Source: Centruroides vittatus (Eukaryota). From it: a DNA stretch of 64,000 nucleotides. Positions 2,460-64,000 of this stretch are shown piece by piece. The notes beneath the pieces are model-generated. The model was not told the DNA's origin. It did no database searches and was given only the letters and a program-made list of their open reading frames with translations. Location of the stretch: NCBI RefSeq assembly GCF_030686945.1, contig NW_027122681.1, forward strand, positions 1,738,938-1,802,937, written 5' to 3'. The translations under genes and the position numbers were made by a program. Each line of letters opens with the position of its first letter. Position 1 is the stretch's first letter.

Positions 2460-3190
2460 AATAAAATCCAACAGAGAAATGTACGTGTTAAAAATTACGT
2501 AATTTAAAATGTACAAGCAAAAATTCTAGATACAGTTTCTTTATCTAGAATTGTTATATGTACAGTACACTTCTAATTATGCAATTTTTCACTCCAGGAT
2601 TTTAATTTGCGTATTTCTTTATCTAGAATTTTGCTTGTACATTTCCAATTGTAGAAAATTTAAATATGTACATTTCTCTTATACAAAATTAAAAATCGTA
2701 AGAGAAATACGCATTTAAATTTTCTACAATTAGAAATGTACAAGTAAAATTCTAGATAAAGAAATATACAAATGTTAAAAATCGTATTTCTTTTTCTTTA
2801 TCTAGAATTTTTCTTGTACATTTCTTTATTGTAAAATATTTAAATGTGTATATTTCTCTTACGATTTTTAATTTTGTATAAGAGAAATGTACATATTTAA
2901 ATTTTCTACAATTAGAAATGTACAAGCAAACTTCTAGATAAAGAAATATGCAAATTAAAATCCTAGAATGAAAAATTGCATAATTAGAAATGTACTGTAC
3001 AAATAAAAATTCCAGATAAAGAAATACGATTTTTAAATTTGTATATCTAGAATTTTTATATGTACTATACAGTACATTTCTAATTATGCAATTTTTCATT
3101 CTAGGATTTTAATTTGCATATTTCTTTATCTAGAATTTTGCTTGTACATTTCCAATTGTAGAATAGTTTAATGTGTGCATTTCTGTTTTA
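2460..3190. repeat. Array of nested palindromic satellite units, about 180 bp each, bounded by tctaga sites.
   Basis: Alternating direct and inverted copies of motifs such as tctagaattttgcttgtacatttccaattgtagaaaatttaaatatgtacatttctcttatac, with hairpin centres near 2690 and 2870. A larger inverted pair lies at 2540-2610 vs 2930-3010, and a direct copy at 3045-3130. Confidence 0.7.
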
Positions 3191-3676
3191 AAAATGTTTA
3201 AATAAAGAAATATACAAATTTAATGTTTTCACGTGTACATTACTCTTTCAAGAATTTTTTTAATTTTTAAATTTCTTGATATTGAATACTTCTACAAATT
3301 CCTCCATCCTGATTTTTTTTTAAACTATAATATACAAGTAGCAGATCCTGATTCAGTTAAGCCGGGAAATTTTTCAATAGCTGTAAATGCCTCTCACCGG
3401 AAAGTATTACTGCAACTCTTAAAACTACTTTAAAATTTGTTGTTTTTTTTCTTTATAAACAAGAAAAATTTATACGATTTTTACTAGAAATAATATTATT
3501 ACTACTAATAAAAAATACATACGTGTGCACCATCTCCAGCACTTTAATATACTTTAATAAAATATAACGAGGATTTAAAACGTTTTCGGACTTTTATAAT
3601 CTTATAAATAATTTTAATTAAATTTATTGATTGTAAATTTCATTAAAAATTAAAATTATCTCGTTTTTTCCGTTAG

Positions 3677-6159: not shown

Positions 6160-7090
6160 CTTAGAAATACAGTAAAACCTGCGTAAACCGGTATGGCTCG
6201 GTACCAAATATGTCTTTTTTCCTCTGACAGGTTTCCATTTTTTGCAGGTTTTTGTTTTAACATTGGAAATAGATTGGCTCCGAAGAATCTTTCCGTTTTA
6301 AGCAGGTTTTACTGTTTAAATCAAGACTAAACCGACTCTTAAAAGATTTAAATCGTAAAAACATTACAAATATTTAAAAATATAAATTTGTTATAAGTAA
6401 AACCTGTCTAAAACGGAAACCTGTCGAACAGGGAAAAATATTCGGTACCGTGCTGTTCCGGTTTATACAGGTTTTACTATATTTTTAAGGTTTCTAAGCA
6501 GGTTTTTTAATTATTTTCAAGTGTTTAATAGCCTTAAATAATTAACTTTTAAATTATTTGAATTATTACTATAATATAGTAGTGTAATAAAGTATAAAAA
6601 TATTATGCTATATTATTTTAATTACCATTAAATTACTTTAATAGTAATTAAAATAATTGATAATACTAATAAAAATCCTATAAAAGTGCATAAAATACCG
6701 TAATGAGTTACTATAAAATCTATAAAAAATGTAATAAAGGCCACTAAAATGTTTAAAACCTTTCATATTGTAAGCTTATGAGCCCAAATAATTAATTTTA
6801 AAATTAATTGTTTGAACTGGAAAAATATTTTAGATTAACTCATTACAGAATATTTTACGTAAAAATTTAATGCCTTTTTCATAGGAGTTTTATCGTTATG
6901 TATACCAGTAAAACCTGTGTAAACCGGAATCGCACGGTACGGATTTTTTCAGGTTTGGCAGGTTTCCGTTTCAAACAGGTTTTTAACACAAGAAAATTCG
7001 TTTCTTTCTTCGAATTACAGTATTTCGGTTTAGGCAGGTTTCCGTTTTATACGAGTTCCGTTTCAGACAGGTTTAATAATAAAACGTGGA
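6160..7090. mobile_element. Cluster of fragments of one MITE family. Terminal motif is cagtaaaacctg...ccggtttatacaggttttactg. Other copies at 8015-8097 and 22650-22790.
   Basis: 6160-6250, 6400-6490 and 6895-7085 each carry cagtaaaacctg(t/c)NNaaaccgg / ccggtttaNacaggttttact ends. The family is TA-flanked at 8015-8097. Confidence 0.55.
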
Positions 7091-7599: not shown

Positions 7600-8340
7600 T
7601 AATTTTTTGGCTGTGGGGGGAAAGTATGGCCACTGGTCAAAAATGACCTCCATTTTTGTACTGAAACTTCCAGAAATGTAAAAAAGTTGGTGGGCTTTTT
7701 GTATTAATGCGTGAAGGAGGCCAGTAGGCCCAGACAAATTTGAATTAGGGGGCCGTGTACTTTGCTGACTTCAGACATTTTCCTTCGGGGAATTTTTGGG
7801 ACTTTTTTCGACATTTTTGGGAGGAATATTTTCTTATAAAAGATTGGTTTGGAGCCCCCTGTTAGTGGGGGAGGGTTCAGGCAATTGCCCTTTTTGCCCT
7901 GATAACGCGCCACTGGAGGAGGCACTGTTTTGTTCGCCCACTTTAAAGCTTAATAACTCCTGTGTCTTCTGTCGGAAATTTCTGAAATTTTGTGTATTAG
8001 GGGTATTGATAGTATTACAGTAAAACCTGTCCAAAACGGAAACCTGCCAAAATATTCGGTATCGTGCGATTCCGGTTTACACGGGTTTTACTGTATATTT
8101 TGGTGGTTAAAGGTCAAGAGGGGGTTCGCGTGTCGTATCTCCTGTGTGATCGGACGTTGTGATTTTGTTATTAGCATTTACATTTTTTTTTTCTTTTTAA
8201 ATAAAACTCGTCTCTAACCTAAAGTTAAGCTTTCTTTTGTGTCATTCTATAATAGTTAATAAAAATAAAATCTGACAACAGATGGCGTCACAAGCAATAT
8301 TTAACTTTATCGCCGGGAAAGTTACGCAACTCTGCTAGAT
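7600..8340. mobile_element. Copy 2 of composite repeat R1, carrying a nested MITE insertion at 8015-8097.
   Basis: Same block order as 595-1110. The nested MITE is an 83-bp ta|cagtaaaacctg...ggttttactg|ta insert between blocks B and C. Confidence 0.5.
8015..8097. mobile_element. Stowaway/Tc1-like MITE with a TA target-site duplication.
   Basis: cagtaaaacctgtccaaaacggaaacctg...ccggtttacacgggttttactg flanked by TA on both sides. It interrupts the R1 repeat relative to copy 1. Confidence 0.6.
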
Positions 8341-26247: not shown

Positions 26248-29034
26248 TTTTTACGTATTTACAGCGAGTGTACCTGGACGAAAACAAACCGGAAAGTGTG
26301 TATAATCTAGGATCGATCCTTTAAAACACGAAGGAAAAACTACAGACAGAAGCAGTCTTGTTAATTACGGGTTAATTTCTAATGTTTTATACGAAGAAGA
26401 ATCTGAAAATGCATTTTTGGAACCTTCAAAGCAGTTTTATCGAGTGGAGAATGGCAAATTTTTATCGGAAAACCACGCTTTTATCTTATGTGGAAAAGGT
26501 GGGATTGTGATTTCGGGAAGAATTAGAAAGGGCGAGAGAATGTCTAACCAAAACAAGCGAAAAATGCATTTAGATATTTTAGACGATGAATTAATTAGAA
26601 AAAATATCAAAGCATTACTAGAAATGAAATTCGGGTGTAGTTATACACTATCGTAATATAAAATGGTAATATAACCATAACTATTGTTCTTATATTTTAT
26701 TTTGAGTTATTTTCATGGGTACATTACTTTTGTACATGTACCCATGAAAATAACTCGAAATAAATTTTTAAATAATTTATTTATCCATGTTAATTTTCCA
26801 CGGGTCCGGCCACGACTTTTCAAGCTAATTACTATGCGTTAACATATTCATTCTCCTTTCTCCATTGAAAAATCCTAATATTTTCGACCAAACGTCAGAG
26901 ATCTGGCCCAGTGAGGAGTTGAGAGATTTCCAGTTATCTCCTAATGTAAAAAGTATAAACAACGTTCTTATAAAAAGTGAAGAGCAGCAAAGAATTAGAA
27001 AGCATGGGAGGTCGTTGTGGGAAGGAAAGACGAAAAGAGAGACTGGAAGAGGCAGAGGCACGAGAGCCTCCATGCTGAGAAAAAAAAAGGAAAAGATCGA
27101 AGTCAAAGAAAGAGAACAACAAAAGGGGAGCTCGAAGAATCAGAAAAAAAAGACGTCTTAAGAAATATCGACGTGCCCTAGCTCAGAATTGGTAGACGTC
27201 GATGGTTTTGTATCCAAATGGCCCTTTTCGGAGCCACGATTTAATGGTTAAGAGCAGCTTTATTGGTATGTTGAAAGCGATGCATTTACTCCAGTCTCAA
27301 AATAAATTTATTGTAAGCATCAAAATGTTTTTGCAAATCTATTTCGAATGGCCAGATTTTAAAAATTTGAACGATAAACATATACCTAAAGAAAAATATA
27401 TTCTAAGATTTATTTGTTCAAAAGATAATTAAAAAATAATAAGTTTTATCACGTGAAATGGCAAATTGTGCGTTCGAGTCAGAAGGTGTAGACAGGTGTA
27501 GATTCGTAAGTAAGTGTGACAGACACCGAGACAGACTCGATAATTACAAAAAAGAAAGGCATTTTTAGTAAGTATGTGGGAGTTGAGAGTGAAGTTGAAG
27601 ATGCAACCAAGATCTGGCATTGAGAAATCTCAGGGAGAAGCTCTTCCGTCCTTAAAATTTAAGGTTGTTATTATTTTTGCCCATTCTGATTGGTCGCCAT
27701 TCCTCGTTTTCGCTTTCTAAGTGTAACGATATCTCAATTTAGATCGCGAGATGAGTCAAAATCTACATTTAATTCGATCCCAGCTGAAGATATTTCCTCT
27801 TGAGACTTACATTGTCTAGATTTCCTTTGTCAAGTTATATTCTTTCTTTAAAAGGAAAAATAATCAAACACAAACAGGTAAGCCCATATATCTAATGTTT
27901 CTAACCGATTTTTGCTACTCTTAACTATTAAATATTGGCTCTAAAAAGAGCAGTTTGGTTAGGACCAGCATAATCTAACAATTCTAAAGCAAGATATGCT
28001 GAAGATGAGATTTTCTTCGGTTGTTCTAAATGTCACACAAATGGAGTCACATAACTAATCCTTATTTGCATAGATCTCTTAACAAAGATGTTGAAAATAA
28101 TAATGTCTTTATGGTAATTAGATTAATTGATGGAGGGCAGAAAGATGGGTAACATGTCTGTCCGAATTTAATGCAATATCTGAATAAGATTCAAAATATT
28201 GGAAAGTGTTTTCTATTATATTTATGGGAAAATTTTCACTGTTTCTGTGAACTATTTCAAATATTGTTCGAGAACGTCAAAATTTCGTTATTCTGCTTTA
28301 TTCTTACTGAAGAACTAACCTTCATTCTAATTGGATGAGGTCTGGAATGTCTTTAATCCAATGAAATTTGTTTTTTGCTCTTGATGATGATTCTAAGAAG
28401 TTGAAAGTATGGGGATTATGTCTAAGACTTGCTTTTTATTAATTCCCCAATAAAGTAGTTCTTAAAGACTTGAGTATGTAAGGTGTTGCTGATTCTTATA
28501 TGATATAGCATTTTGCAAATGATATTAACAGTATACTTTGTATTACTTATATTTATTTATTATTGACAGTTCAAAAATAGGTAAATCACAATAAATGTTG
28601 AAAACACATCTCTGGTAAACATAATGTGAAAAATTCAATACAAACTAATATATATCTTCAATAAAATGCATATGACATATGTTGATCCATAGACAGGACT
28701 CTCTTGTTTTCTTTTATAAATATTAGAAAACTAATTCAGTTTAAATTGTATAAAAATATACGTAAAATATTTTTGTTCTTGTGTATGTTCAGAAATTAAT
28801 TACCAAACAATGTGTTTTAATCTGACATTTACGATTTCTCGTTTAACGTATGGGACTAGTATCATTACTAAGTGTTACAAAATAGAAGGATTGCTTATTG
28901 TTTGTAATTTCAAATCACAGTATATTATATTTTTAATTATTTATATGCTAACATTAAATTCAATGACATAGTAACAACTTTAAATAGCTCTTGCATCTGA
29001 TTTTTGATTATTCAATATGTTAAGGATTGTGGCA

Positions 29035-30056: not shown

Positions 30057-30512
30057 TCAGATTTGATTCTGGATTCCTCAGTATGATGCCTGTAATTACC
30101 TCAGCCATATGGCCGTCGCCAATAAAACAGTGACAATTATATAAAAGGGAAAATTGTCAGTCTGGTGATTGGCAGATGCAGACAACCAACTGCTGTATAG
30201 TGTGAAGCAACTTTTCACATGCAATATGTCACAGCAGTGGTGTGCCATGACATTTGATGATAGGGAAGCTGTGTTTCTGTAAGAAGACGACTTCCAGGGG
30301 CAATCAGTGATGGTCTAGAGTCCATTTATATTCGTTTGTTCAATAAGCCAGTAAGAACTGTAGACTTCTCTAAATGTATTTTTAATAGATTATCTGATAT
30401 ATTGAACTTGTTTATTTATTAAGTACATCAAATATTTTAATGGATTTTTTTAAAACTCCTGTCAACTATACAAAACATAACCCAACCGATAGGAGTTTCC
30501 TGGTAAGTTATA

Positions 30513-31067
30513 CGTGGTACGATCCAAAAGTTCGGGGACTGCAGTAATCTATGACAACAAAAGCATGTATTTGAAGTTACGGCGTATGAAATGGATTCTA
30601 CCAAACCACCTCTACGTGTTCAGGTTAATTTCACCCATGTCATGTGATTAAACCGCGAGCGCTGCTGTTTTTTTCCGGAGATAGTTACCTTTGTTCTGCG
30701 ACATAATAAAAGTAGAGTTTCAAGAACAACCTCCAACATTAAATTTTGTCAGCGTTTAGGTAAAACACCTACGGAGATTTTAAAATTGCTAAGAAAGGTG
30801 TACGGTGATTCTACGGTGAAAGGTCACGATGAAGTCGAAATGTTGGAGGTTGTTCTTGAAACTCCACTTTTATTACGTTGCAGAACAAAGGTAACTATCT
30901 CCGGAAAAAAAACAGCAGCGCTCGCGGTTTAATCACATGACATGGGTGAAATTAACCTGAACACGTAGAGGTGGTTTGGTAGAATCCATTTCATATGCTG
31001 TAACTTCAAATACATGCTTTTGTTGTCATAGATTACTGCAGTCCCCGAACTTTTGGATCGTACCACG
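30513..31067. mobile_element. Mariner-derived foldback MITE, copy 1. About 555 bp, fully palindromic, with a TA target-site duplication.
   Basis: ta|cgtggtacgatccaaaagttcgggg...ccccgaacttttggatcgtaccacg|ta. The arms 30513-30790 and 30800-31067 are reverse complements. The arm encodes FCQRLGKTPTEILKLLRKVYGDSTV, a mariner N-terminal HTH-like segment. Confidence 0.75.
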
Positions 31068-31856
31068 TAAATCAAGGGCAAGGGCGGCCAAATATCTAGC
31101 ACGCAGGTGACTAACAGCCCAGAATTGGTCCTGGATAGAATCATTGGAAGCGTTATACGATATTTTGGTGTGTGGCTTCCACTAGCTAAACCACGTCAGG
31201 TTGGTGCTCTGTAAAGTGCATGCGCAAATGCCTATAATCTGGTTGTTTTACTTCATTCGCCATGGAAGCTGTCCTGTATTCAACAATACAGCAAACACTT
31301 CCATTGGGAATATCCCTATATGAATTTATATTTGAAAATACAATAGCAATCTTATCGTTTTTTTCACATGTAGTATAGAAATTTGTAATAAAATATATAT
31401 TGCGGTTATAATAAAATGTAAATTTTAATTAATTCAAAGTATATTCAAATATGAAAATAATTGCGCAATATGTATTTATAGTTTAGAAAATACAAGGAAA
31501 GTGGCACTTCCAAGAACGGCACGCCACTGTGTCACAGTGAAGTCAGACCAGTTTGCATGACATGAATAGTGCTATTAATGCCATATGTTTTCACATTCAT
31601 CACACTTGTCACTTTAAAACCAAATGAAAATTTTTTAAACAGGCAAATTTATTGAAACCTGTTAATTCCCTTTGTACACGATTTGTTTTGATCTAAACAT
31701 TTTTCAAGATTGTGTAAAAAAAAATCTGTGTTTTATAATGACAAATAATCTGTATTAAATAAAAACATTAACATAACAAAACATACTTTAGAATTTTATC
31801 AGTTATAAAATAAAAAAAAATAAAAAAATAAGAGACTTATTTCAAACTTACAATAC

Positions 31857-35042: not shown

Positions 35043-36408
35043 TTTTAATTCAATGAATATTGAATAGGTAGTTAATTCCTTCTGTGTAATTTCTGTTTCT
35101 CCGTCTTTGACGACAATTTCAGTATCACCAAATTTAACTACTTTTGATCCTGACTTCTTGGAAGAAAAATCTACAGGTCTATGCCTTTTCATTACAGATT
35201 GTTGAGGAAGAGACAATGGATATGTTTGCATAGAGAATTCTCGTAATTTAAGAAGATGTTGCTTTTGGAGCTGCTCCCCTTCATCTGATGAAACTGTTGA
35301 AAAATTATCATCATTAAATTTAAAATCTGAAAATGAAAAATAGATATTTGATATTTTTTTTACTTGAAGAAGGTAAGTTAGGTGGTACACCAGGTCGACT
35401 AACAAATTCTACTAATGTGGCTGATGGACTGCTTCCAAAACATGGTACTGAGGAGGGGGAGTGACCACTTCCAAAGCCTGAAACTGAGGAGGGAAATGCA
35501 CCACTTCTAAAACATGGTACTGAAGACTGTGTTGGACCACCTCCAAATTGTGGTACTGGAGGTGTTGGACCACTTCTAAAACATGGTGCTAGAGAGGGTG
35601 TTGGACCACTCCAAAAAGTTGTGGTACTGAAGAGGGTGTTGGACCACTTTCCAAAATCATGGTACTGAAGAGGGTGTTGGACCACCTACAACGATTGTGG
35701 ACTGAAGAGGGTGTTGGACCATTTCAAACAAATTGTGGTACTGAAGATGGTGTTGGACCACTTCTAAAACATGGTGCTAGAGAGGATGTTGGACCACCTC
35801 CGAATTGTGGGACTGAAGAGGGTGTTGGACCACTTCCAAAACCTCCAAATTGTGATACTGAAGAGGGCGTTGGACCACTTCCAAAACGTGGTACTGAAGA
35901 GGGCGTTGGACCACCTCCAAATTGTGGGACTGAAGAGGGTGTTGGACCATTTCCAAAACCTCCAAATTGTGGTACTGAAGATGGTGTTGGACCACTTCTA
36001 AAACATGGTGCTAGAGAGGATGTTGGACCATCTCCAAATTGTGGGACTGAAGAGGGTGTTGGACCACTTTCAGCATCTGGAAGAGGTTCATCTCCCTTCT
36101 CAGTTTCAAAGTCTGAAACCAAGTACAATGAACTGCTTCCAAACCGTGGTACTCTGGCAGAACAAGGTTGAATTTTCTGCATTAGAGCTGAGTATCCAGT
36201 TATTACTTCTTGGTTGGATACAAAATGATCCTCATGTGCTGATCTATGTGTAGTGGCCTCAAGAGATTTTCTTGAAACTGCACATAATTTTGAATTCACT
36301 GCATCGTAAGTTTCTACAAAATTTGCATCTAATTCAATGCTTTCATTTAGATAAAACCTATCTTCTCCAGTTTCTACATTTAGTTTTTTTAATTTAAACA
36401 ATACTTAA
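35043..36408 (-). CDS. Large coding exon, or exon plus mini-intron, for a low-complexity protein. It contains at least 12 tandem units of the roughly 12-aa unit GPTPSSVPQFGG, which is FG-repeat-like. Local frame breaks mean it may be a pseudogene or may contain assembly errors.
   Basis: Minus-strand frames that read ...LPDAESGPTPSSVPQFGDGPTSS...SGPTPSSVPQFGGFGSGPTPSS...: 35724-36401, 35320-35685, 34959-35405. The last two frames join cleanly if a 37-nt intron (CTTCAA|gtaaaaaaaatatcaaatatctatttttcattttcag|ATTTT, about 35325-35361) is spliced out. 3' donor TTAAAAG|GTATGAG at 35042. 5' acceptor tttctaaatag|TTTAAG at about 36409. A stop and indels in the repeats lie around 35620-35730. Confidence 0.45.
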
Positions 36409-40502: not shown

Positions 40503-40863
40503 ATTCCCAAAAAATTTTCCCTAAGAAAAAAATGTCTGAAGTCAACAGGTAAGTAGAACCCCCTAATTCAAATCTGCCTGGACCCCATGAAGCTATAACA
40601 CACCACTGACGTTGTAAGTTCATAATTAATATGTGTATTTAAACATACTTGGTCTAACAGGCTTTAAGCAATAGTGGAACCCTTCACCCAATTGGTTTCT
40701 TAAATTGAGGACCTACCAGACTAAAAATAATTTCAATTCTCACTAGAATAATCAAATTTGATACAATTATATCTCCAATTCAAATTAATTCATATTAATT
40801 GTAGTATATTAATGTTACAATAAATTAAAATGAAAATATAATATATACTTTTTTCTCGTTTAC

Positions 40864-40920
40864 CAATAATTTCCTCAGAATCCTCAGCAATGGCTGAGTG
40901 TAATGTTGCAACTCTTTTAA
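40864..40920 (-). CDS. Second 57-nt exon, in frame with the previous one, encoding VKRVATLHSAIAEDSEEII(G).
   Basis: Intron gtatttttaagtatacaaatttagactttcttttataccatttttttaatgttttttttttccag|TTAAAAGAG. Donor ATTATTG|GTAAACGAG. The frame is continuous from exon 40986-41042. The copy-B counterpart has diverged (acceptor ccag mutated to ccgg). Confidence 0.45.
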
Positions 40921-40985
40921 CTGGAAAAAAAAAACATTAAAAAAATGGTATAAAAGAAAGTCTAAATTTGTATACTTAAAAATAC

Positions 40986-41042
40986 CTTCTGTAGGGAATA
41001 CTTGCACTGAGGAAAGTACTGTAGCAGGCATATCTTTATCCA
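40986..41042 (-). CDS. 57-nt symmetric (phase 1-1) exon encoding (V)DKDMPATVLSSVQVFPTE.
   Basis: Acceptor ttttactttcag|TGGATAAAG. Donor ACAGAAG|GTATTTTTAAGT. It is followed by a textbook 62-nt intron with a polypyrimidine tract. The paralogous exon at 48394-48450 keeps the frame with nonsynonymous changes (VNKDASATEPTSVQVFPTE). Confidence 0.5.
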
Positions 41043-42644
41043 CTGAAAGTAAAATAAATTAAAAATAGGAAATTAGAATTTATGTAATATTAGCAATAAA
41101 TTTCATTATACTGTATTGTAAACTAAAAGCTATTTACGTCCGATGACGTACATTGTAGTTTATATTCAAAAAATGGTAAAATCCCAAATAAAATATAACT
41201 CATCGAATTTGACCAAAAAGCTAAAAATCATAATTTAATTTTTAAAATTAACAAAGAAAAAACTTCATATGCATAAAAGTAGTTCAAGAAGTCATTTATT
41301 TGTGTTAGAATTAATGGAATAAGGAGCAATGCAACACTCGAGTTATCTGCTACGGGAGTGGTACCACACAGGATGAAATTCTATGGAAAACCAGCCCAAT
41401 TTAAGTGTTAGGCATGCGAAGAAAACCTGGAAAACAATACTGAAGGGTACAAACTAACAATCAACTACCAGTATTTGTGCTTTTGTGTAGTAAACTGTGG
41501 ATTTATTCAGGATAAAATGTTTTTCAAAATAGCAACACCTTATTGTCAGGTCCAACTGAAAGAACAGAATTTGAATAAAAATATCACCAGATTGTTCTAA
41601 AAAACTGTTTTCTGGCTTTTTGAACACACAGGCAATGTTGTTTTCATTCAAATTACATTCTTTCAGATTCTAGTTGGATCTAATAAAGAGATGTTGCTGC
41701 CATTGTGATAAATGTTTTATAGATTAAACTATCTTCTTACCAGATTACTGGAATGAATCACACACAATCAAGAACCTTTAAAATCCAGTAACATTTCATT
41801 AAAATTTGTGTTACTGAACTTTTAAGAACCTTTAATGTTTTATTCTGAATAAACCTGACTCCAAGGAATGGTTTATAGTATTTACACAGATTTGTTTGTT
41901 TATCTACAGAATCATTAATGTTAGAACATATTTTAAAACCTGGCCAGTGATTTAAATAGGGTTTGGCCAGGCCAGTGACTAGATGGCCAAGGAATGGCCA
42001 TCTAGTCATTGGCCTGCGGGCCCAACATATCCAGAATGGACCAACCTCAAAAATTTCCTGTTGTTTTTTTCACCCATCTGGATTTGTTTTTGGGTCATCT
42101 GTGGCAGTAGGCTGACACTTTAACCATTCAGCCGTCTGCCCATCATCAAAATACATTTATAATATACAACAAATTTTCTTGAAATACTTTTTCATAGCTA
42201 GCCATTATTACATCATCATCAAAATAAAATTGGTATGGACTGACTTAATTTGAGTGCAGTTGAATCTATTGCTATAGAAAATACATCTGGCAAGAATATT
42301 GATCTCTATAAAATATTTATATCAATAACATTTTTATTTTTATTGTTTGTACCATATTGACCTGCAAACTCGACTTCACAAAGACTGAGTAAACCAAGTC
42401 TCTGAAAATGACAAGTTTATAGTGACGACGCTAGTCTAAATATGGGGCTCCTACTCAAATTTTTGTTTTAAATTCCACGATTTTGATGACTTTTCCTGAG
42501 CAACTTTCTACAAATTCCGACCCTCACGTCCCCTACAGGATGGCACATTGACAAAATAAATCAGCATTTGACTTATTATGCACATATGCTATTGCTTCTC
42601 CAACTTTTTAGTTAGTTATTTTTTTTTTCTAATTAACAGTTATA

Positions 42645-43516
42645 CGTGGTACGATCCAAAAGTTCAGGGAATGCAGTAATCTATGACAACAAAAGCATGT
42701 ATTTGAGGTTACAGCATATAAAATGGATTCTACCAAACCTTATCTACGTGTTCAGGATAATTTCGCCCATGTCACGTGATTAAACCGCGAGCGCTGCCAT
42801 TTTTTTCCGGGGATAGTTACCTTTGTTTGGCGACGTAATAAAAGTGGAGTTTCAAGAACAACCCCCAACATTAAATTTTGTCAGCGTTTAGGTAAAACAC
42901 CTACGGAGACTTTAAAATTGCTAAGAAAAGTGTACGGTGATTCTACCATGGCGAAGTCGAAAATGTACGAATAGCATTGGCGTTTTAAAGAGGGCCGAGA
43001 ATCCATCGCAGACAATCAACGCTCTGGCCGACCTTCGATTTAACAGGATACACAGGTTGAGTTTATCCTGCAAACACATTGAGCATTGAGAGACAACTCA
43101 ACATTTTCCTCATTCTGTTAAATCGAAGGTCGGCCAGAGCGTTGATTGTCTGCGATGGATTCTCGGCCCTCTTTAAAACGCCAATGCTATTCGTACATTT
43201 TCGACTTCGCCATGGTAGAATCACCGTACACTTTTCTTAGCAATTTTAAAGTCTCCGTAGGTGTTTTACCTAAACGCTGACAAAATTTAATGTTGGGGGT
43301 TGTTCTTGAAACTCCACTTTTATTACGTCGCCAAACAAAGGTAACTATCCCCGGAAAAAAATGGCAGCGCTCGCGGTTTAATCACGTGACATGGGCGAAA
43401 TTATCCTGAACACGTAGATAAGGTTTGGTAGAATCCATTTTATATGCTGTAACCTCAAATACATGCTTTTGTTGTCATAGATTACTGCATTCCCCGAACT
43501 TTTGGATCGTACCACG
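42645..43516. mobile_element. Mariner-derived foldback element, copy 2. 872 bp, perfectly palindromic about position 43075, with a TA target-site duplication.
   Basis: ta|cgtggtacgatccaaaagttcagggaatgcag...ctgcattccccgaacttttggatcgtaccacg|ta. Each arm retains the mariner 5' end and translates to CQRLGKTPTETLKLLRKVYGDSTMAKSKMYE*HWRFKEGRESIADNQRSGRPSI. This is HTH_48-like (compare [25 protein letters not shown]), with an in-frame stop. Confidence 0.8.
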
Positions 43517-45239
43517 TATATATATATATATTTATTTATTTATTTATTTATAATTGTCAAATTATTCAAATTAAAAATTAAATGTTTTATTAAATTAAAG
43601 TAGTTTATCCTGTTATTAATTCACAACCATAAATCTACATGGCTTTGAAAAAAAGACACAAGCAATTATTTTATTATTCATTAACAAATTCTTTATAATC
43701 CATGTACAAAGTATATATTAAATTTATCCCTTAATACACTGGAAAAAAAATCAGAAATTGACATTCGCTTTGTGGTATTTTGCAGTGGCATCTTGGTAAT
43801 ATATCATATTCTTTGTTAAGACATGGAATTTATGCTATTTTCGACTGTCTCCAGAAAAGAATGACAACTTATTTAATCTTAACATTAAGTTGTAGATATA
43901 AAATTAGATTATACGTATTTCTTTTTTTTTTTTTTTTTGGACGACATGACAAGTTTTACAGAATGACAAGTTATTGAGAGTCGAGTTTCTGGGACTATAG
44001 TTTATTCTAGTTGTATATTTACAATTTAATGTTAAAATAATGCTGAAAGTAAAAAAACCGTCTAACAACATTACAGTGGTGACTTGTGCTTTTAATTTGA
44101 CTCATTCCAAGAAACCATTTAAAGTCCAAAGCAATTTTTTTCTATTAGAAATAACAAAGTGAGTTAATCCATTCTCTGACCCTAAATAATACTCATTTCG
44201 ATAAACTTAAAACGGCAAATATATGTAAGTTAAGGTAAAAATAACAATTGAATGCCCTAACAATAAAATATGTAAATACTGTCTAATAAAATGAAAATTG
44301 CATTTATTGGTTGCACACCATGAACTTTGACATCTTAAACATGGCTGCCAGATTTGCCACATATATTGCTTTCATGCTTTGCGATAAGTTACTTTTTCAT
44401 CTCAATTGTTGTTACAATCTACTTCTTAGATGTTGTGGTCAATAGGTACAAGGTGTATTGGGTTGAACAGAAAGTTTTTGTCAACTATTTTTAACAGCTG
44501 TCTTTACTTAACATAAATGTATGATTTAATTATAATAGTTGCAAAATTTAACACTATCGTAACACACTGTTCATACTGTTTTTTTTATTTGGATTTCTCC
44601 TGAAGATGAGTTATAATTTTGTCAAAAGTACTTGTGAATTTTACCATAATTAAATTTTAATTAATTTTAATAGAGAGTTTTTCTTTATTATAAGTTTAAT
44701 TAGTTTATTATTAAATATTAATTATTTATTATATAAATTTTTATTTATAGTTACAGAATTGCTAAATTAAATACTAAAGTTATCATCTTACAAGATCGTT
44801 TTCTAAATTCAGAACTTTTTGATTTCTCTCTGGTACGACCTATTCAAAAAATTAAATATACATTTAATAAAAAGCATTATCAAGTTTTACAGACAGACAT
44901 AATTAAAATAAGAACAATGAATGATGACGGAATTACAAATGCACATAATAATATAAACAAAATATAGGGAAAGATCAAAACACAGTGAACGACCGAATAA
45001 AAACTTGACATATTTTCATTAATTGCAGTTGAAATTGCTAAAAAAATTCTCATTACATGTGAATTATAATTATGGAAAACTGATCACTAACAGAAGCTAA
45101 TATAAAATTGCAAACAGACAAATAAAAATGGTTAGTGCAAACATCATTGAGTCTGTACAAACAAGAAGGAATTCAGGATTCTCATCCGTGTTAGCATATT
45201 TGAAATATGTTATGCATGTATAAATTTAAGAGGAAACAA

Positions 45240-45450: not shown

Positions 45451-46151
45451 ATTTTTAATTAATTATTATGTTACAAATATCATGCTCAGCTGGTACTGGT
45501 GCCAAGTGCTATGCTGGACTAAAATCAAAGTATAGCTATCCAAACAAATGTAACATTAAGCTGTGTTATTGGTATGTGTCAACATCTAGAAATTTCCTGT
45601 CAGTGTGGCATGTTCAATATTACAGCTTTCTGTAGTACCATGTATATGTTTTTATTAAGGTTTAATGTTTCTAGACTTTTGCATAGTATATGTGGTGTAA
45701 CACCAGTAGAAGAGAGGACAACAGATACAATAAATACCTTATCCATCCTCCACATCTGTCTTATTTCTTGAGCGAGTGGAGTGTACATGTTGATTTTTTC
45801 ATTGTGAGTATTTTTTGTTATGAGTATTTGGAATGGAGATGTCTATTATATAAGTGATCTTACTACATTTGTCAGAGTGATGTCGGGTCTATTGTGATGA
45901 ATTGTTTTATCTGTGATTATGACACTGTCGTAGTATATTTGTAGTATGGTAGATGGGTGTTTAATAATCTGTGCTTTTGTGCAAACTCTTGGTGTATTAC
46001 ATTTGCTATTTGATTATGCCTATGTAAATAGTCTGTCTGTGCTAAGAGTTTGCAAACAGAAGTTATATGTTGTATTGTTTCTGGCAGAATGTGGCATTTT
46101 CTGCAAGAGTCATTTGTTAGTGATGTATCCTTCAGGATGTGTTTTCTGTAG

Positions 46152-46565
46152 TTTTTATAGGGTACGTTCGTTAAGTCGAACGAGTTAAACGCATTAGTAA
46201 CGAATCGTTCGAAAAGTAGTAGTCTTGCTCAGTGCACATGCTCTGCGGTAATGACGTATCGAACGAAACTCTAACGAAGCTCACGAAGGAAAGAGTTAGT
46301 TTACTTCGTTAAGAAAATGGCGCCCGACGATATCGATGTTTCTAGATCTACTCGAGTGTTTAAATTGTGAATTAAAAGGTGAAATGATTGAAATAACTGT
46401 CCATCCGAAGTAACCTAAGAAAAATATTTTGGATAAAGCTGCACTAGCAACATTCATATCTTTGATTTTAGAAACAGCCATTTAGTTTAACGAATCGTTC
46501 GAAAAGTCTAACAAAACAAGAATAACGATGATGTCATTCTCGTTTAACTCGTTTGACTTAACGAA
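46152..46565. mobile_element. MITE of about 415 bp with roughly 33-bp TIRs and subterminal direct repeats.
   Basis: gggtacgttcgttaagtcgaacgagttaaacg vs the reverse complement of cgtttaactcgtttgacttaacgaacgtaccc. Internal taacgaatcgttcgaaaagt is duplicated at 46195 and 46488. Confidence 0.6.
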
Positions 46566-46849: not shown

Positions 46850-49460
46850 AAATTTTTTGTGAACTGTATACCATTGCTGGTTACACACACAAAAATACGG
46901 TACTTGATTTTGTTACATCATCATCGAACAGTAACAAATCTATGTTCTGCTCCTATCAATTTTTATGTACTGTACATTAGAGCAGTGATCTCCAAACATT
47001 TTTGATTATGAACACCTAAGATGAAAATAATTATAAGTTGTACCCTCTGTATTACATTATAATTTGCTAAATTTCCACTATAAATACATAATTCCTGCTA
47101 AATTTCCCACTACCCGCACAATTTGAGTTTTTTCCATGTATGATCGCAAGTGATTGTGAACCTACTTCTTTGGGAGGATGAATAAGATTAGACAGACTGC
47201 AGACAGACACACATACAGTATTTTGAAGGAAAACTTGCCATACCCCATGGGATATGCATACCCCACTTTGGAAACCACTGCATTAAAGCATGAATGATAA
47301 TACCTCTCTTAATTATTTTTATAACAATAACTGAAACATTAAGTGTATTCTGAATATATTTAGATTTTTGCCTGAATTTAACGTTATCAAATAATGTAAA
47401 AAAAATTCAAGCAGATCCAGGAATGTATTTGTAAATATTCTAAAAGCATTAATCATTCTACAATTAAAAAGATTTTCTGGCTACTTAAACGTTTCCAATG
47501 TGTTTTGATATTTTTTGTAAAATTATGAAGCTACTTTGTTACATTATACTTTGAAATCTCAAGTAAAAAGCTATCAAAGCTAAGAAATTGAAGCAAAAAT
47601 ATTACTACATAATCAAATACAAATTAAAGATTTTTTTTCTCAGTTAATTTGAAATGTTTATTACATTAAAGAAATAATTTGCATCATTTATAGGAAAAAT
47701 TAAATACAGTAAACCTTTGATTTAACAGACTTCAGACTTAACAAAAAGTTATACATTTTTCCTTTAGGACAGAAAATTCTTTTTAATATTCATGTATAGA
47801 GCACACTAAAACATTAGGCCAATGAGTCAACAAGTATAAATTACTCAATATACATTATAACAACATTCCAATACATCCTGTATGGTGTAAGTTTGTAATA
47901 AGTATGTGTTTAAAAACCTATTTGATAGTGTTTTAAACCTATTACATTTAATAGACTTTCAGCAATAGTGGAACCCCTTCCCCTAATTAGTTTCTTAAAT
48001 CAAAGGCCTACCAAACTAAAAATAATCTCTCTTCTCATAAGAATAATTAAATTTGATATAATTATATCTCAATTCAAATTAATATGAATAATGTTACAAT
48101 AAATTAAAACAAAAGTGTAATATATACTTTTTTCTTCTTTCTCAGTGATTTCCTCATTGGCACTAAGAACTTCTAACCTTACTACAATTAAATTTGATAT
48201 AATTATATCTCAATTCAAATTAATATGAATTAACGTTACAATAAATTAAAACAAAAGTATAATATATACCATTTTCTAGTTTCTCAATGATTTTCTCATT
48301 GGCACTAAGAGAGAGTAACCTTCCTACAACCGGAAAAAAACCATTAAAAAAAATAGTATAAAAGAAAATCTAAATTTGTATATTTAAAAATACCTTCTGT
48401 AGGGAATACTTGCACTGAGGTGGGTTCCGTAGCAGAAGCATCTTTATTCACTGAAAGTAAAATAAATTAAAAATAGAAAATTAGAATTTATGCAATATTT
48501 ACAATACAGTATAACAAAATTTATTGCTAACTAAAAGCTATTTACGTCCGATGACGTACATTGTGGTTTATATCCAAAAAATGGTAAAATCCCAAACAAA
48601 ACATAACTCATTGAATTTGACCAAAACACTGAAAATCATATATTTTAATTTTTAAAATTAACAAAAAAAGAGAACTTCGTACGTGTAAAAATAGTTCAAG
48701 AATTCATTTATTTGGGACAGGATTGATGGAATAATGGGCACAATACAACACTTTGGTAATCTACCAACGGAAAGGTGCCACACAAGAAGAGTTTCTATAG
48801 GAATTCTGTCTCCTATTTACGTGTTAGGCAGGTGAAGAAAACCTGGAAAACTCTACAATTTCCAAGCTTTTGTATGTTTGTCGGTTGATTTCTTCCAGGA
48901 AGAAAGCAACCACCTTTTCATCCAACTTCACAAACTTGCAGCCAATAACTAATGTTTGTGGTTTTATGCACTTGACCACCGATTTATTTGGGACAAAATA
49001 TTTTTCCAAACAGTAACATCATCTTGTCAGATCCAACTAGTTTCAGAAAGAACATGATTTGAATAAAAACATTATTGCAAGAGTGTTCTAAAAACTTTTT
49101 TTCTGACTTTTCAAACACACTGGTGACATTTTAGATCTGATGAGATATTGCTGCTCTCTTGATAAATGTTTTATTCTGAATAAACCCAACTCCATAAACT
49201 ATTTGTAGTGTTTGGAATGATTTGTTTATCTATGGCGTCATTAACATTACATCCCATTTTAAAGCCCAGCCAGTGATTTATATAGGGTTTGTCCCAGGCT
49301 CATGACGACGTTGCCAAGTGCTGAAGGACAGGACTTCACTTATCCAAGTTGGGTTCCCCCAAAAAATTCTCAGGATTTTGACCCGTTTGGATTTGTTTTT
49401 GGATCATCCACAGCAGTAGGCCAACACCTTAACAGAATAGCTGCTTTCAACACTGTAGCT
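46850..49460. repeat. Segmental duplication copy B, the partner of 38690-42140.
   Basis: See copy A. Copy B contains the paralogous mini-exon at 48394-48450. Confidence 0.75.
48394..48450 (-). CDS. Paralogous 57-nt exon (VNKDASATEPTSVQVFPTE) in duplication copy B. The downstream partner exon appears degraded.
   Basis: Same acceptor and donor context as 40986-41042. The reading frame is preserved. The following acceptor ccag is changed to ccgg. Confidence 0.35.
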
Positions 49461-49955: not shown

Positions 49956-52900
49956 AAATTGCAGTCCAATAATACCCATTTGTAAAGGTACACATGTACA
50001 GTGGTACAGTGAAAGTAAAGAAATGTTAAGATTGTCATTGTAACATACTGATTTTTATTCAAATTTCACCTGAAGTTAAGTTATAATTTTGTCAAAAGTA
50101 CTTGTAAATTTTACTGTAATTAAATTTTACTAACTTCAATAGACAGTTTTCCTTTAATTATAGATTATTATTACATATTAATTATTTATTATATAAATTT
50201 TTATTTAAAATTAGAGAATTTTAAGTTTAATTGCTAAACCAAATAAAAAAATGATCCATTATCTGTCTTAAAAAAATCATTTTACATTTGACTCACAATC
50301 AAAATCACCATCAAAACATTTCTTCTTCTTCTTCTCGATAGGACCTATTCGAAAAATGGAATATATATTTCATAAAAAGCATTATGAGGTTTGACTTAAA
50401 CAATTAAAACAAGAAAAGACAATGCTGATTGAATTACAAATGCATAAGATATTATAAACAAAATGTACGAAAAGGTCAGAACACACTGGACAACAGAATA
50501 GAAACTTGATATAATATAATATGTTACAAAGTTTAAAGACTAAACAACACAAAAAGAAAAAAAAAAGGAAAGATTTTTCTGCGTAGAGTCTTCTATTCAT
50601 TCATTTACAGCTGTCGAAATACAATTAATGACAGTGGAGTTAATCTTTCTTTAGCGACTCTTCTCCACCCATAAGCATGCAAATTGTCTAAAAATTTTTG
50701 AATCACTTGTAAAATTAATTTTAAAAAAGTTATTTAAAAATTCAGGACGATAAAGAAAGGTCAACTCTGCTATTGTTAACCAACTGTTGTGAACAGACAA
50801 ATCGAAGACTTCATACAGAAAAATCTCCCTTTTCTTGTGTCGTTTAGTCTTTATATTTTGTAATATTTTAATATACATCATCCTTAATTTTTAAACAATT
50901 TTTTCAAAATTATTTTTTACTATTGACCGCAGCAGTGAAGAGCATTAAATTAATTTTTAAAAACCTAAAGTAGGTAATTCCATATTATTTTCAATCTTAT
51001 GTGAAGAAATGGGTAGAGAGCATAAGCATTTTCTCTTCAACTGCCATCGTAGCTAAGTAATACAACTTGCCGAAGGAAATTGCTTTGCTCATTTGTATGA
51101 ACTGAGACAAGTAGTTCAAGTCTTCCTCTCTGAGAGTATGAACTTAGTGACAAATTTACAGATGAGCAAGGGACATGAAGGTTAGCTTTCTTGATTTGAT
51201 ATCTTCCAGCAACAGAATGAGTTGAATAAACATCTATAGAGTAAACATACAACATCCTTCACAGTTCATGATAAAATAAAAGCTTTAAGAAAGAAACTTC
51301 ACTTTGCAACAAAAAAAGACATGAATGGGCAACTTCATTCTTTCCATTCTTAGAATATTTTTAGAAAAAATAAACTCGAGCTTTCTGGTTCTTTTACAAC
51401 ATAGACAACATAACGGAGCATTGTCTACATTTGATTGAAGACTTTAAAGAATATTTCTGAGAATTCAGACAGCAAGTTCTGGATGCAGAACTCTTTCTGT
51501 GGTAGAAGACTCCAGTCTACTAGACTTCTTTTCAACGAAAGGAAAGAAAGAAATTATCGAACTGTTCTATGATGAAATTTTTGAATTCAATTCAAAAAAA
51601 TATTTTTGACAGACTTTTGGTTGAGGACTAAATACATTTTCTCATATTGCTGTCCATGTCTTCAAGTTTATGATTCATTTCTTAACAACAAATCTATGTG
51701 AGAATGAGTTTTTATATTAAAAAGTAAGTACAGGTATCCCTCATATAACACAGTAGTTCTGTTCCGAAAAAGTGCCATGTTATACAAATCCATGCTATAC
51801 GAAACAAAGGACTAATGCAAAATATGGAATTAGGTTCCAAAAGTTAACAAAAGTATCCTATTCTTTTTTGTTACTAAGAGAAATATGTTTATTAAAGTAA
51901 TCGATAATTTATTTCCAATCAATGATTAATTAAAAATTACAATATTATGCATTAATATTAATTTTAGTTAAATGAGGGCATTTTCTTTTTACAAAGTATC
52001 GTTATCATCTGAGCATTTTTGTTGATCTTGGTCAGAAATATCAGCAATGTCTTCATTTTTCTTATTTTTACCATAAAAACTTTTATGGATGACAAAATAA
52101 AAATGCGTTATTAATCAAAAATTTTTTCTAGGGGCCCTCGTTTGTTTGGTCGAGTACCAAGCAATTTTTCTCCGGAATTTGTGTTTGAATACTGAATTAT
52201 TCGAGTTGGAAATTGTTCAAGTACTGAGATACCACTGTATCTGCACTTAAAAATTGTGAAATTTTGTACTGACAATTTCCTGAACTTTTGAACTGCTTTA
52301 GAGTGAATGTATGGGGGATATTCCTAATTTTCCAACTGTGTTAGAGCAAAACTGCATTGTAGAAATGCCTTGTTGTATAATGGATACCTGTAGTGCATAA
52401 ACTAAATTTGAAGTTGGATCTTTTCTTGAAAATTTTGACAGGACAATCAAACATCAGAAAGCCGTGTCAAAGGCACACATCTCACTGAAAACAAAGATGA
52501 ACCAATAAATAACCAGCCAAAAACAACAGCATAACTGGTTATTTATAGACCCACACTTACATTTGAGGATTCACAATCTCCAATTTCAGAGAACTTCAGA
52601 ATTAGGATTAGAGATTTTTATTTTTGAACAGGTTTAATTTTACTTCTTATATATTTTTTAAACTGATCATAACTAATCCCAATAAATGATGATGTTAAGA
52701 TAATAAAAGTAGGATTTTTATTAATAGTATATTTATTTTCAATAGATTAAAAACTACCTGCAAAATTACTGAGTCATAAGAATCTTTTAAAATTATCATA
52801 TGGAAAATATTACTGTGAGGAGTAGACCTTTGTTTAGATTAGTCATAGCCAGGGGTACAAAGTTTGAGAATAATTGTTTTATACTGAAATTAATAACATA

Positions 52901-59159: not shown

Positions 59160-60389
59160 ATTTTTAACATTGTTCTCGACCTCCTTCAGCTAGCGGTGTG
59201 TGCACAAGTTGGTCGCACACTAGCATGTCGGTGTACCACTAAAGATACTTTTACATGTATTAACAAAATGCAATGTTAAAGATTTGCAGTATTTTTACAT
59301 AAAAATAAGCAAATAATATTAAAATATAAACAGAAAATTAGCATTTTAAAATGATTTTCTGAATATTTATAGTTTATGTACAATAAGTTTGTGACACACC
59401 AGTTCATAACCACTGTACTAAACCATTCTTCTACAATCTAACCCATTGAAATTTTTCTATTTTTACATAAATTAACTAAGCCACACCCTTCTTCATTGCC
59501 TTAAACATTGCTAATTTAAAATTTATAGCTAAAAATATACTACATTTATTTTAATTGAATCAAACCAGCCATTTAGTTTCATTTGTAATTGTTTATAACT
59601 ATAAATAATTGAAATCAAAGACATTTAATCGACTTAATTCAGTACACAAAACACTTTCTATACCAAATTAAATTACTCAGAATTATGCTTTGATGCAATG
59701 TATTCTGTTGCAATATAATGTCGCGTAACTTTTATTTTAATGTGAAAAGTTTCAATTGTCGATTAACATAAATAAATTTAATATATTATTAAGAAAATAA
59801 TGTTAACCATACTCTATTTATTTTATAATGATATATTCTATATAACCTAAATGTATTTAATATTTGGAGGAAATTCAATTTCCATTTGACTTGATACATT
59901 GAGCTTATACTTGAGCTTATTTTCTGTAACTTGTGGTTAACTTTTATGATTTTGGCAATATAATTTACGTTAGATTAATGGTTTTCTCTCATATGTTTAA
60001 TTATTTAGATGTATGTATCAATGGCTATATTTTAAAGTATAAATCAATATATCTACAGCTAAATTTAGACTTGCTTTGGTCCTAACTTATAACACATAAA
60101 AAGCCCTTTACCCCACCCACTAAGGAACAATAAATTTAAGTTTGAAGCCCTAAAATTGTACCCTAATAATGAAAGATCAAGGCCATAACTTGTTTAATTC
60201 ATATGTGAATCTGATTTTTTTTGTTTCACAATAAAATGTCTGCATTTAAAACTTTTACACCAACAAAGAACCACAAAATTCCAAAATTTTCTTCAAAACC
60301 ACTACAATTGTCTTCTCAAGGTTAATACTAACCTACTTTTGTCTTTTAATAATCTTATTAGACAAGAGATATGTCTAAAGCAAACTCAC

Positions 60390-60531
60390 CATTTCTGATC
60401 ATTCCGAGTGCTAGACATTTCTGTAAGCGGCAATACTCACACCTATTTCTGTTTACTTTATCAACAATACAATTTTTCTGTCCCATGCAATAATAATTTA
60501 CTTGTTTAAATTGGCTCCTCCTGAAGAAACC
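60390..60531 (-). CDS. Exon encoding the second zinc finger of a nuclear hormone receptor DNA-binding domain: [47 protein letters not shown].
   Basis: Acceptor ttcctttag|GGTTTCTTCAGGAGG. Donor AGAAATG|GTGAGT. The C-x5-C-x9-C-x2-C spacing matches nuclear-receptor finger 2, and KCLxxGM matches the start of the T-box. The exon begins exactly at the conserved CK|GFF intron position. Confidence 0.8.
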
Positions 60532-63726: not shown

Positions 63727-64000
63727 CTTACAATGAACATTTTCAATTTAAGCTATAAAAATATGAAATTATCACATTACATTTTGTACAAATGTGACTT
63801 TGACACATTTTACTGCTAAAACAACTTAGTTGCTTAGGCTCATTAATTCAGTTATTGACTTAAACTCCAGTCTTGATCATAAAAGGCAAAAACATGCAAA
63901 TTAAGAGATATGTTTAGACTTTGCCCACAGTTCCAAGAAATGCAAAATTCTGTAAAAGCATGCAATAGTTATTATTCAGTAAGTGCAAAAGTTCTCCATA

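Follow-up and report, generated by a model that had tools for sequence, protein, structure and literature searches.

Two probable 5'-5' foldback derivatives of a mariner transposon in a 64-kb region of the genome of the scorpion Centruroides vittatus

We analysed a stretch of 64,000 nucleotides from the scorpion Centruroides vittatus (NCBI RefSeq assembly GCF_030686945.1, contig NW_027122681.1, positions 1,738,938 to 1,802,937; hereafter the window, from whose first letter all coordinates are counted), which contains two palindromic, transposon-like foldback elements. Copy 1 occupies positions 30513-31067 (555 bp) and copy 2 positions 42645-43516 (872 bp); the two lie 12 kb apart and are 93% identical (6.6% divergence), with different centres. 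An annotated gene harbours copy 2 in one of its introns; the product of this gene, P0042 ('uncharacterized protein [Centruroides vittatus]', 415 aa), maps exon by exon to the minus strand from 55218 to 35727 by tblastn, with 99% identity over the 199-aa last exon and 84-100% identity over the short exon matches. Copy 1 is found about 4.7 kb downstream of the last P0042 exon. An initial annotation of this DNA had given the coordinates of both elements and the TA dinucleotides flanking them, and these are borne out by direct reading of the sequence (Table 1).

Both elements possess the features that define membership of the mariner type: a TA target-site duplication (TSD), with TA on each side of both copies, mariner-type terminal inverted repeats (TIRs), and homology to the helix-turn-helix (HTH) domain family HTH_48. 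The 25-nt TIR occurs four times in the window, in every case at an element end, compared to a shuffle expectation of 0.00. Its alignment with the TIRs of two related mariners, L001 and L002, which are described below, is in register, with a common core of ACG..G.T..AAAAGT, and it resembles irritans-type TIRs such as that of Rpmar22 (CGAGGGTGGTTTGAAAAGTTCTCGGAAT; PMC4678618), a likeness that was judged by eye, with no computed alignment. In their small size, non-coding state, TIRs and TSD the elements also resemble a miniature inverted-repeat transposable element (MITE), with sizes of 555 bp and 872 bp, the latter near the usual upper limit of the MITE range. Their GC content is 40-42%, compared to 31% for the window, their ratio of observed to expected CpG (CpG o/e) is 1.1-1.2, and TRF identified no tandem repeats inside either of them. 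The flanks of copy 1 and copy 2 are unrelated, indicating that the two are separate insertions and not the products of a segmental duplication. We additionally noted the bases AGTTA ahead of the TA at both foldbacks (30506-30512 and 42638-42644), which could be due to chance or reflect a preferred target site; the right flanks are alike in the TA only.

Copy 2 consists of two 405-nt arms around a 62-nt loop, and the arms are complementary at 403 of 405 positions, as determined by an inverted-repeat search and by blastn of one arm against the window. One of the two mismatches lies within the TIR (A at 42666, against G), and the other at the base of the loop (43047 against 43114). The single-strand fold is predicted to be one long hairpin (-531 kcal/mol, z = -78 versus shuffles). 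Read on the minus strand from the right arm, the loop continues the transposase reading frame: the translation ...SGRPSI*QNEENVE aligns by tblastn without gaps to ...SGRPSTGRTDENVE of P0001, a related mariner protein, at least seven further codons lie within the loop, and 12 nt of it (GAAAATGTTGAG) are identical in the L002 mariner. The loop read from the left arm gives a weaker match to P0001, for which a gap is required. As the loop extends the open reading frame (ORF) of the right arm only, it is single-copy parental sequence on one arm, and the right arm is the one that keeps the original orientation at the turnaround. This one-sided loop fits a snap-back or template switch, and not two independent truncated insertions. 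The base of the loop reads AACAG/CTGTT, where, without a linear parent, microhomology is indistinguishable from the palindrome itself.

The paired arms of copy 1 are shorter, with 228 nt on the left (30513-30740) and 229 nt on the right (30839-31067), and differ by five substitutions and one 1-nt indel in the arm alignment; at least two of the arm-specific changes, those at arm positions 188 and 191, turn CpG into CpA. Between the arms is a 98-nt non-palindromic centre (30741-30838), which is the continuation of the left arm. This continuation, which runs to arm position ~322, meets the right arm at position 228, within a common AATGT (30839-30843). Located 15 nt ahead of the junction, at 30815-30824, is a 10-nt insertion, GGTGAAAGGT, which is built of the motifs TACGGTGA and GAAAGGT, both found 11-25 nt upstream, suggesting that it may be the scar of a templated insertion. 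The shape of copy 1 would be explicable by one asymmetric, centre-spanning deletion, at AATGT microhomology, of a copy-2-like element. The single-strand fold of copy 1 is likewise predicted to be one long hairpin (-283 kcal/mol, z = -45 versus shuffles). The two elements had been described as perfectly palindromic, of which the palindrome stands and the perfection does not: the arms of copy 2 are reverse complements over nearly their full length, with two exceptions among 405 positions, and those of copy 1, with their five substitutions and one indel, are paired outside the one-sided 98-nt centre.

Each arm comprises a TIR, a leader of ~196 nt and ~69 decayed codons of an N-terminal transposase stub. 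Translated in the frame that begins at 42843, the arm gives SGVSRTTPNIKFCQRLGKTPTETLKLLRKVYGDSTMAKSKMYE*HWRFKEGRESIADNQRSGRPSI*Q, and the stub scores 33.9 bits against the Pfam family HTH_48 ('HTH domain in Mos1 transposase'; gathering cutoff 24.1, E = 3.5e-8), a score obtained with the TAG stop read as Trp; the homology begins at 42867. Set against the beginning of the L002 ORF, the former start codon falls at 42844; three of the arms have GTG there, and the left arm of copy 1 has GTA. Between the first codons and the HTH frame lies a 1-nt frameshift, within a CCCCCAAC run, and the TAG at 42972-42974 aligns by tblastn with a conserved Trp of P0001. The same coding lesions (stops, frameshift and lost start) are found in both arms. 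The initial annotation had quoted the arm translation correctly, had placed the TAG at a conserved tryptophan, as the alignment with P0001 confirms, and had recognised that the left end of a mariner, HTH stub included, is duplicated in inverted orientation, a view that is upheld by the HTH_48 score, the mariner N-terminal relatives (58-63% identity) and the in-register TIR. It had also recognised the N-terminal coding stub in each arm, put there at about 45 codons, a number that we revise to ~69 (42844-43049).

Among 5.8 billion proteins, we identified only two relatives of the stub, P0001 and P0002, with 62-63% identity, and none that was more than 63% identical; by tblastn, the identity of the stub to P0001 is 55-58%. 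Both proteins come from one ENA assembly, in which their contigs are large and eukaryote-like, and each lies just upstream of a Transposase_1 ORF with the sequence HHDNAPAH...(34)...PCDFF, the spacing of which, counted by hand, is the DD34D mariner signature. The relatives, L001 4796-6132 and L002 4758-6099 (ENA ERZ25067590), are ~1.34-kb DD34D mariners with 30-nt TIRs; in the alignment the TIR ends of L002 begin with TA, and those of L001 read AA and AC. The contigs, of 2.8 Mb and 0.27 Mb in a 'metagenome' assembly, therefore come from a eukaryote. These mariners appear, from the sequences compared, to be the closest known relatives of the N-terminus of the scorpion element, and the distance from TIR to HTH is 225 nt in the foldbacks versus ~238 nt in L001.

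We could not find a mariner catalytic domain in the 64-kb window using tblastn with the catalytic half of a related mariner, nor, by tblastn, any trace of C-terminal transposase coding sequence in either copy. In lacking a DD34D catalytic domain, the copies are non-autonomous derivatives and not complete mariners. The TIR and a 22-nt core of the arm had no exact match in JGI metagenome, prokaryote or viral contigs, sets outside which the host genome falls, and the two arm ORFs had no exact entry in the gene-position index. Look-ups of the C. vittatus proteins P0042 and P0073 likewise gave no record.

The arms of the two elements were compared in the 228 alignment columns that all four contain. 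Twenty-one substitutions vary among the arms, and 15 of these are fixed differences between the copies, common to both arms of each copy. Single-arm changes are restricted to five substitutions and one indel in copy 1, and one substitution in copy 2. The copies are further separated by the 10-nt insertion which, together with the 15 differences found in both arms, indicates that copy 1 is derived from a related element and not from copy 2 itself. Thus, the initial reading, in which copy 1 is copy 2 with an internal deletion, is retained for the shape of the deletion, with its AATGT junction, and is not retained for descent. The lost ATG and the frameshift are common to all four arms, indicating that the common ancestor was already non-coding. 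Given one foldback ancestor with independently mutating arms, differences found in both arms should be almost absent, and either the foldbacks formed separately, from diverged linear copies, or the arms have been homogenised within the foldbacks. A text search of the paper on the foldback element Galileo returned no statement of such arm homogenisation.

Taken together, both elements are probably non-autonomous, non-coding, 5'-5' 'double left end' foldback derivatives of a mariner (Tc1/mariner superfamily), in each of which an inverted copy of the left half appears to have taken the place of the right half. By analogy with related cases, they would most likely have formed via template switching or abortive gap repair. 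DNA synthesis may have switched template, either during gap repair after excision or during replication, with the nascent strand snapping back on itself; alternatively, a strand primed from the other end could have jumped to the wrong TIR, the TIRs being alike. The ends would then have been joined at short homologies, with the single-copy loop of copy 2 marking the turnaround. A model of this kind, with template switching in gap repair and microhomology joining, has been presented for the Goblin MITE (PMC3814204). The form of copy 1 would reflect a subsequent asymmetric deletion that spanned the centre of a palindrome resembling copy 2, as suggested by the AATGT microhomology and the templated-looking insertion nearby. 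Deletions centred on the breakpoint have been proposed for Rpmar17 copies (PMC4678618), and PMC3300023, citing Cunningham 2003, describes the centre-break revision of long palindromes, with which the form of copy 1 would agree. As the same transposase-binding TIR is located beside a TA at both ends, a cognate transposase acting in trans could cut and paste the foldbacks, and their mobilisation in trans is, by analogy with Rpmar49, plausible.

Certain points weigh against this interpretation. Only two copies are present in the 64-kb window, and the mobilisation of foldbacks is an inference; neither an autonomous partner nor an empty site was found, and the collections scanned exclude the host genome. 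The linear parent is unseen, so that any microhomology at the turnaround of copy 2 is putative. Finally, the 15 co-varying sites mean that a single origin requires arm homogenisation in addition, the alternative being two origins. Two events would be implied if the foldbacks had each been made in place, by aberrant repair of a full-length mariner at each TA site, with the foldback form itself never having transposed. Abortive gap repair works at the donor site, and the TA flanks could be those of the parent insertion (PMC3814204); different turnarounds and 15 differences found in both arms are expected of two events on diverged parents, and the Rpmar17 copies of Rhodnius mostly have different breakpoints (PMC4678618). 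However, the unusual 5'-5' rearrangement would be needed twice within 12 kb, the lost ATG and 1-nt frameshift in all four arms would place both parents already in one defective lineage, and the related Rpmar49 is reported to have been amplified by true transposition (PMC4678618). We consider formation in place to be unlikely.

We regard it as very unlikely that the copies are simple internal deletions of an autonomous mariner with TIRs of at least 400 nt, from which the inverted duplication would have been inherited. One autonomous mariner, Mcmar1, has long, perfect TIRs (about 355 bp). Mariner lineages with 221-bp TIRs are documented (Rpmar49, PMC4678618), and the parent in this genome is unseen. 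In contrast, the closest full-length relatives have ordinary 30-nt TIRs within a total of 1.34 kb, the ~69 N-terminal transposase codons would have to sit at the 3' end of a working element, and a C-terminal coding trace is found in neither copy.

The location of copy 2 in an intron means that transcription of the host gene would give an RNA containing an almost perfect duplex of ~400 bp. The predicted RNA fold of copy 2 contains such a ~400-bp duplex, with a minimum free energy of -786.9 kcal/mol (z = -72), and we identified no Rfam match at gathering thresholds and nothing in a tRNA scan. A near-perfect inverted repeat of ~400 bp within an intron is a likely source of double-stranded RNA (dsRNA) and a likely fragile site, and the production of small interfering RNAs (siRNAs) or PIWI-interacting RNAs from the foldbacks is plausible by analogy. 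It is quite unlikely, in our view, that the foldbacks constitute a self-propagating hairpin family, with arm-to-arm conversion, whose intronic dsRNA yields endogenous siRNAs against the 5' leader and HTH region of the cognate mariner. Arm-to-arm conversion would explain why 15 of the 21 varying substitutions are found in both arms of a copy and, if true, a chelicerate transposon would have produced a repressor of its own family. Small-RNA libraries exist for the congener C. sculpturatus (bioRxiv 10.1101/185694), making the dsRNA idea cheaply testable.

We consider a host hairpin-RNA gene, with the palindrome maintained for diced regulatory small RNAs and the transposon origin mere history, to be highly improbable. 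The very stable predicted RNA hairpin (-787 kcal/mol), the position inside an intron of an annotated gene and the 99.5% identity of the copy-2 arms are all consistent with such a gene, and Made1 elements have given rise to human mir-548 (PMC1784062). However, no Rfam family is matched, the youth of the element explains the high arm identity equally well, copy 1 is already decaying (a centre deletion, five substitutions and one indel), and a duplex of 400 bp does not resemble a microRNA (miRNA) precursor. An assembly or library artefact, from a chimeric foldback read, is barely credible: amplification or long-read library chimeras can create near-perfect palindromes, but these palindromes end precisely at TA-flanked mariner TIRs, occur twice, with 6.6% divergence and different centres, and lie between unrelated, unique flanks.

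Table 1. Coordinates of the two foldback elements and of the host-gene exons around copy 2.
Feature	Position	Strand	Evidence
Copy 1, TA target-site dinucleotide, left side	30511..30512	.	
Copy 1, left arm, paired part (arm positions 1-228)	30513..30740	+	
Copy 1, unpaired centre, equal to copy-2 arm positions 229 to ~322 (...CQRLGKTPTEILKLLRKVYGDST...), with 10-nt insertion	30741..30838	+	
Copy 1, right arm, 229 nt	30839..31067	-	
Copy 1, TA target-site dinucleotide, right side	31068..31069	.	
P0042 gene as host context: exon 44793-44837, intron with copy 2, exon 40987-41046	40987..44837	-	tblastn of P0042
Copy 2, TA target-site dinucleotide, left side	42643..42644	.	direct sequence reading
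Copy 2, left TIR, single variant A at 42666	42645..42672	+	pattern search; alignment with L001 and L002 TIRs
Copy 2, left arm: TIR, ~196-nt leader, decayed N-terminal coding stub	42645..43049	+	inverted repeat, blastn
Copy 2, stub of ~69 transposase-derived codons, GTG for ATG	42844..43049	+	Pfam HTH_48, tblastn versus P0001, L002 ORF start
TAG stop at conserved Trp codon, mirrored in copy-2 right arm	42972..42974	+	translation, tblastn
TAA, second in-frame stop, mirrored in copy-2 right arm	43041..43043	+	translation, tblastn
Copy 2, unpaired 62-nt loop; minus-strand reading extends transposase frame of right arm (QNEENVE...)	43050..43111	-	tblastn
Copy 2, right arm; reading extends into loop	43112..43516	-	inverted repeat, blastn, tblastn
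Copy 2, TA target-site dinucleotide, right side, abutting (TA)n/(TATT)n microsatellite	43517..43518	.	

The P0042 gene contains an intragenic segmental duplication (40800-42124 versus 48100-49433, and 44572-44890 versus 50044-50395; 73-86% identical), within which short exons (...SVQVFPTEG...) are duplicated. Positions 42125-44571, which include copy 2, are unmatched in the partner repeat of this duplication; taken as an empty-site comparison, similarity ends at 42124 and restarts at 44572, and the insertion site of copy 2 falls outside its coverage. The last P0042 exon contains 36-nt and 117-nt tandem repeats (35425-36069), which code for GPTPSSVPQFGG-like units, and has long ORFs on both strands.

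We additionally identified other features in the window. CpG o/e forms a mosaic, with values of 1.0-1.7 in the first 32 kb, and of 0.38-0.73 in 32-64 kb, where two genes lie, which is the pattern expected from gene-body methylation. A nuclear-receptor DNA-binding domain of the HR3/ROR type has its two zinc fingers encoded by two exons on the minus strand (60361-60531 and near 63732). At only 80% identity to its top database match, it is unusually divergent for a domain of this kind, and may represent a paralogue. On the minus strand at 45603-46228 we found the C-terminal fragment, now decayed, of a long interspersed nuclear element (LINE) reverse transcriptase with a zf-RVT-like CxxC...H motif, which is 85% identical to the annotated C. 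vittatus protein P0073, and ~40-48% identical to many lepidopteran 'uncharacterized proteins'. AT-rich units of ~170 nt, alternating in orientation, are clustered at 2536-3203; their inverted pairs are 88-95% complementary and centre on the motif AGAAATGTACAAG..TTCTAGATAAAGAAAT, and they constitute a further hairpin-forming repeat, of unassigned family. A short repeat (..AAAACCTGTGTAAACCGGAATCGCACGGTAC..), present in both orientations at 6167-6211, 6436-6478, 6906-6949 and 8050-8096, probably represents the ends of another MITE-like family. Finally, an ORF on the plus strand at 26306-26653, upstream of copy 1, has weak similarity to the Cullin family (27.2 bits, under the cutoff of 33.2), and may belong to a divergent cullin gene as one of its exons.

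Foldback derivatives of this kind can be compared with several known systems. Rpmar49 and Rpmar17 are mariners of Rhodnius prolixus in which one end has been replaced by the other (Filee et al. 2015, PMC4678618); the TIRs of Rpmar49 are 221 bp long, with transposase homology, and both lineages were amplified by transposition, reported as true transposition in the case of Rpmar49. The scorpion elements are similar to both, in that one end is an inverted copy of the other, the long TIRs contain transposase homology, the elements are non-autonomous with TA TSDs, and further deletions centred on the breakpoint distinguish the copies. In contrast, the 3' part replaced the 5' part in Rpmar49 and Rpmar17, whereas in the scorpion elements the 5' part replaced the 3' part. 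The Rhodnius elements keep ~900-970 bp with internal sequence, whereas the scorpion copies have little beyond the arms (a 62-nt loop and a 98-nt centre), and the host is in the one case a bug and in the other a scorpion.

Goblin is a Stowaway-like MITE of Aedes aegypti, derived from the Tc1/mariner element Ozma (PMC3814204). As in the scorpion foldbacks, both of its subterminal regions come from the same parent end, in inverted orientation, and template switching with microhomology joining has been proposed as its origin. Goblin is, however, derived from the right end of Ozma, with the parent and the junction microhomologies known, whereas the parent of the scorpion foldbacks is unseen. The same paper (PMC3814204) lists the foldback Tc1/mariner MITEs PALTA1_CE, CeleTc2, CeleTc5 and Cele7 of C. 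elegans, which are similar in that essentially the whole element is a foldback, with TA-type ends linked to Tc/mariner. They are unrelated in sequence to the scorpion elements, the arms of which keep an HTH_48 stub.

Made1 is an 80-bp human MITE derived from Hsmar1, made up of a pair of 37-bp TIRs plus 6 bp of internal sequence, and is the source of hsa-mir-548 (PMC1784062). Like the scorpion foldbacks, it is a mariner-derived, nearly perfect palindrome that would form a hairpin if transcribed; the Made1 hairpin is processed by the RNA interference machinery, and Made1 often lies in transcribed regions (PMC1784062). Made1 is of the size of a pre-miRNA, whereas the scorpion arms of 228-405 nt, with leader and coding sequence, are of siRNA-precursor size, any small-RNA output from them being putative.

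The Drosophila elements FB and Galileo have arms of internal tandem subrepeats and TSDs of 9 and 7 bp, and belong to other superfamilies. The scorpion elements share with them long inverted arms able to fold back. We rejected an FB/Galileo-type foldback for the elements described here, the arms of which have no tandem subrepeats and the TSD of which is TA.

We found no report of such foldback mariners from a scorpion in the literature searched. Foldback Tc1/mariner derivatives are already documented in other animals, and the novel aspects here are the duplication of the 5' end, the retention of almost nothing but the arms, and the scorpion host; the co-variation of the arms is the sole point that goes beyond the precedents. 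Knowledge of mariners is unchanged by these foldbacks, which are in this respect a fairly ordinary example. They also present a very clean and young example (arms 99.5% identical) of a cut-and-paste transposon turning into a hairpin element, in which the turnaround loop is still legible as transposase and the second copy shows the next step, the loss of the centre. Thus, alongside the Rhodnius, Aedes, C. elegans and human elements, the pair could serve as a worked example for models of MITE and foldback origin.

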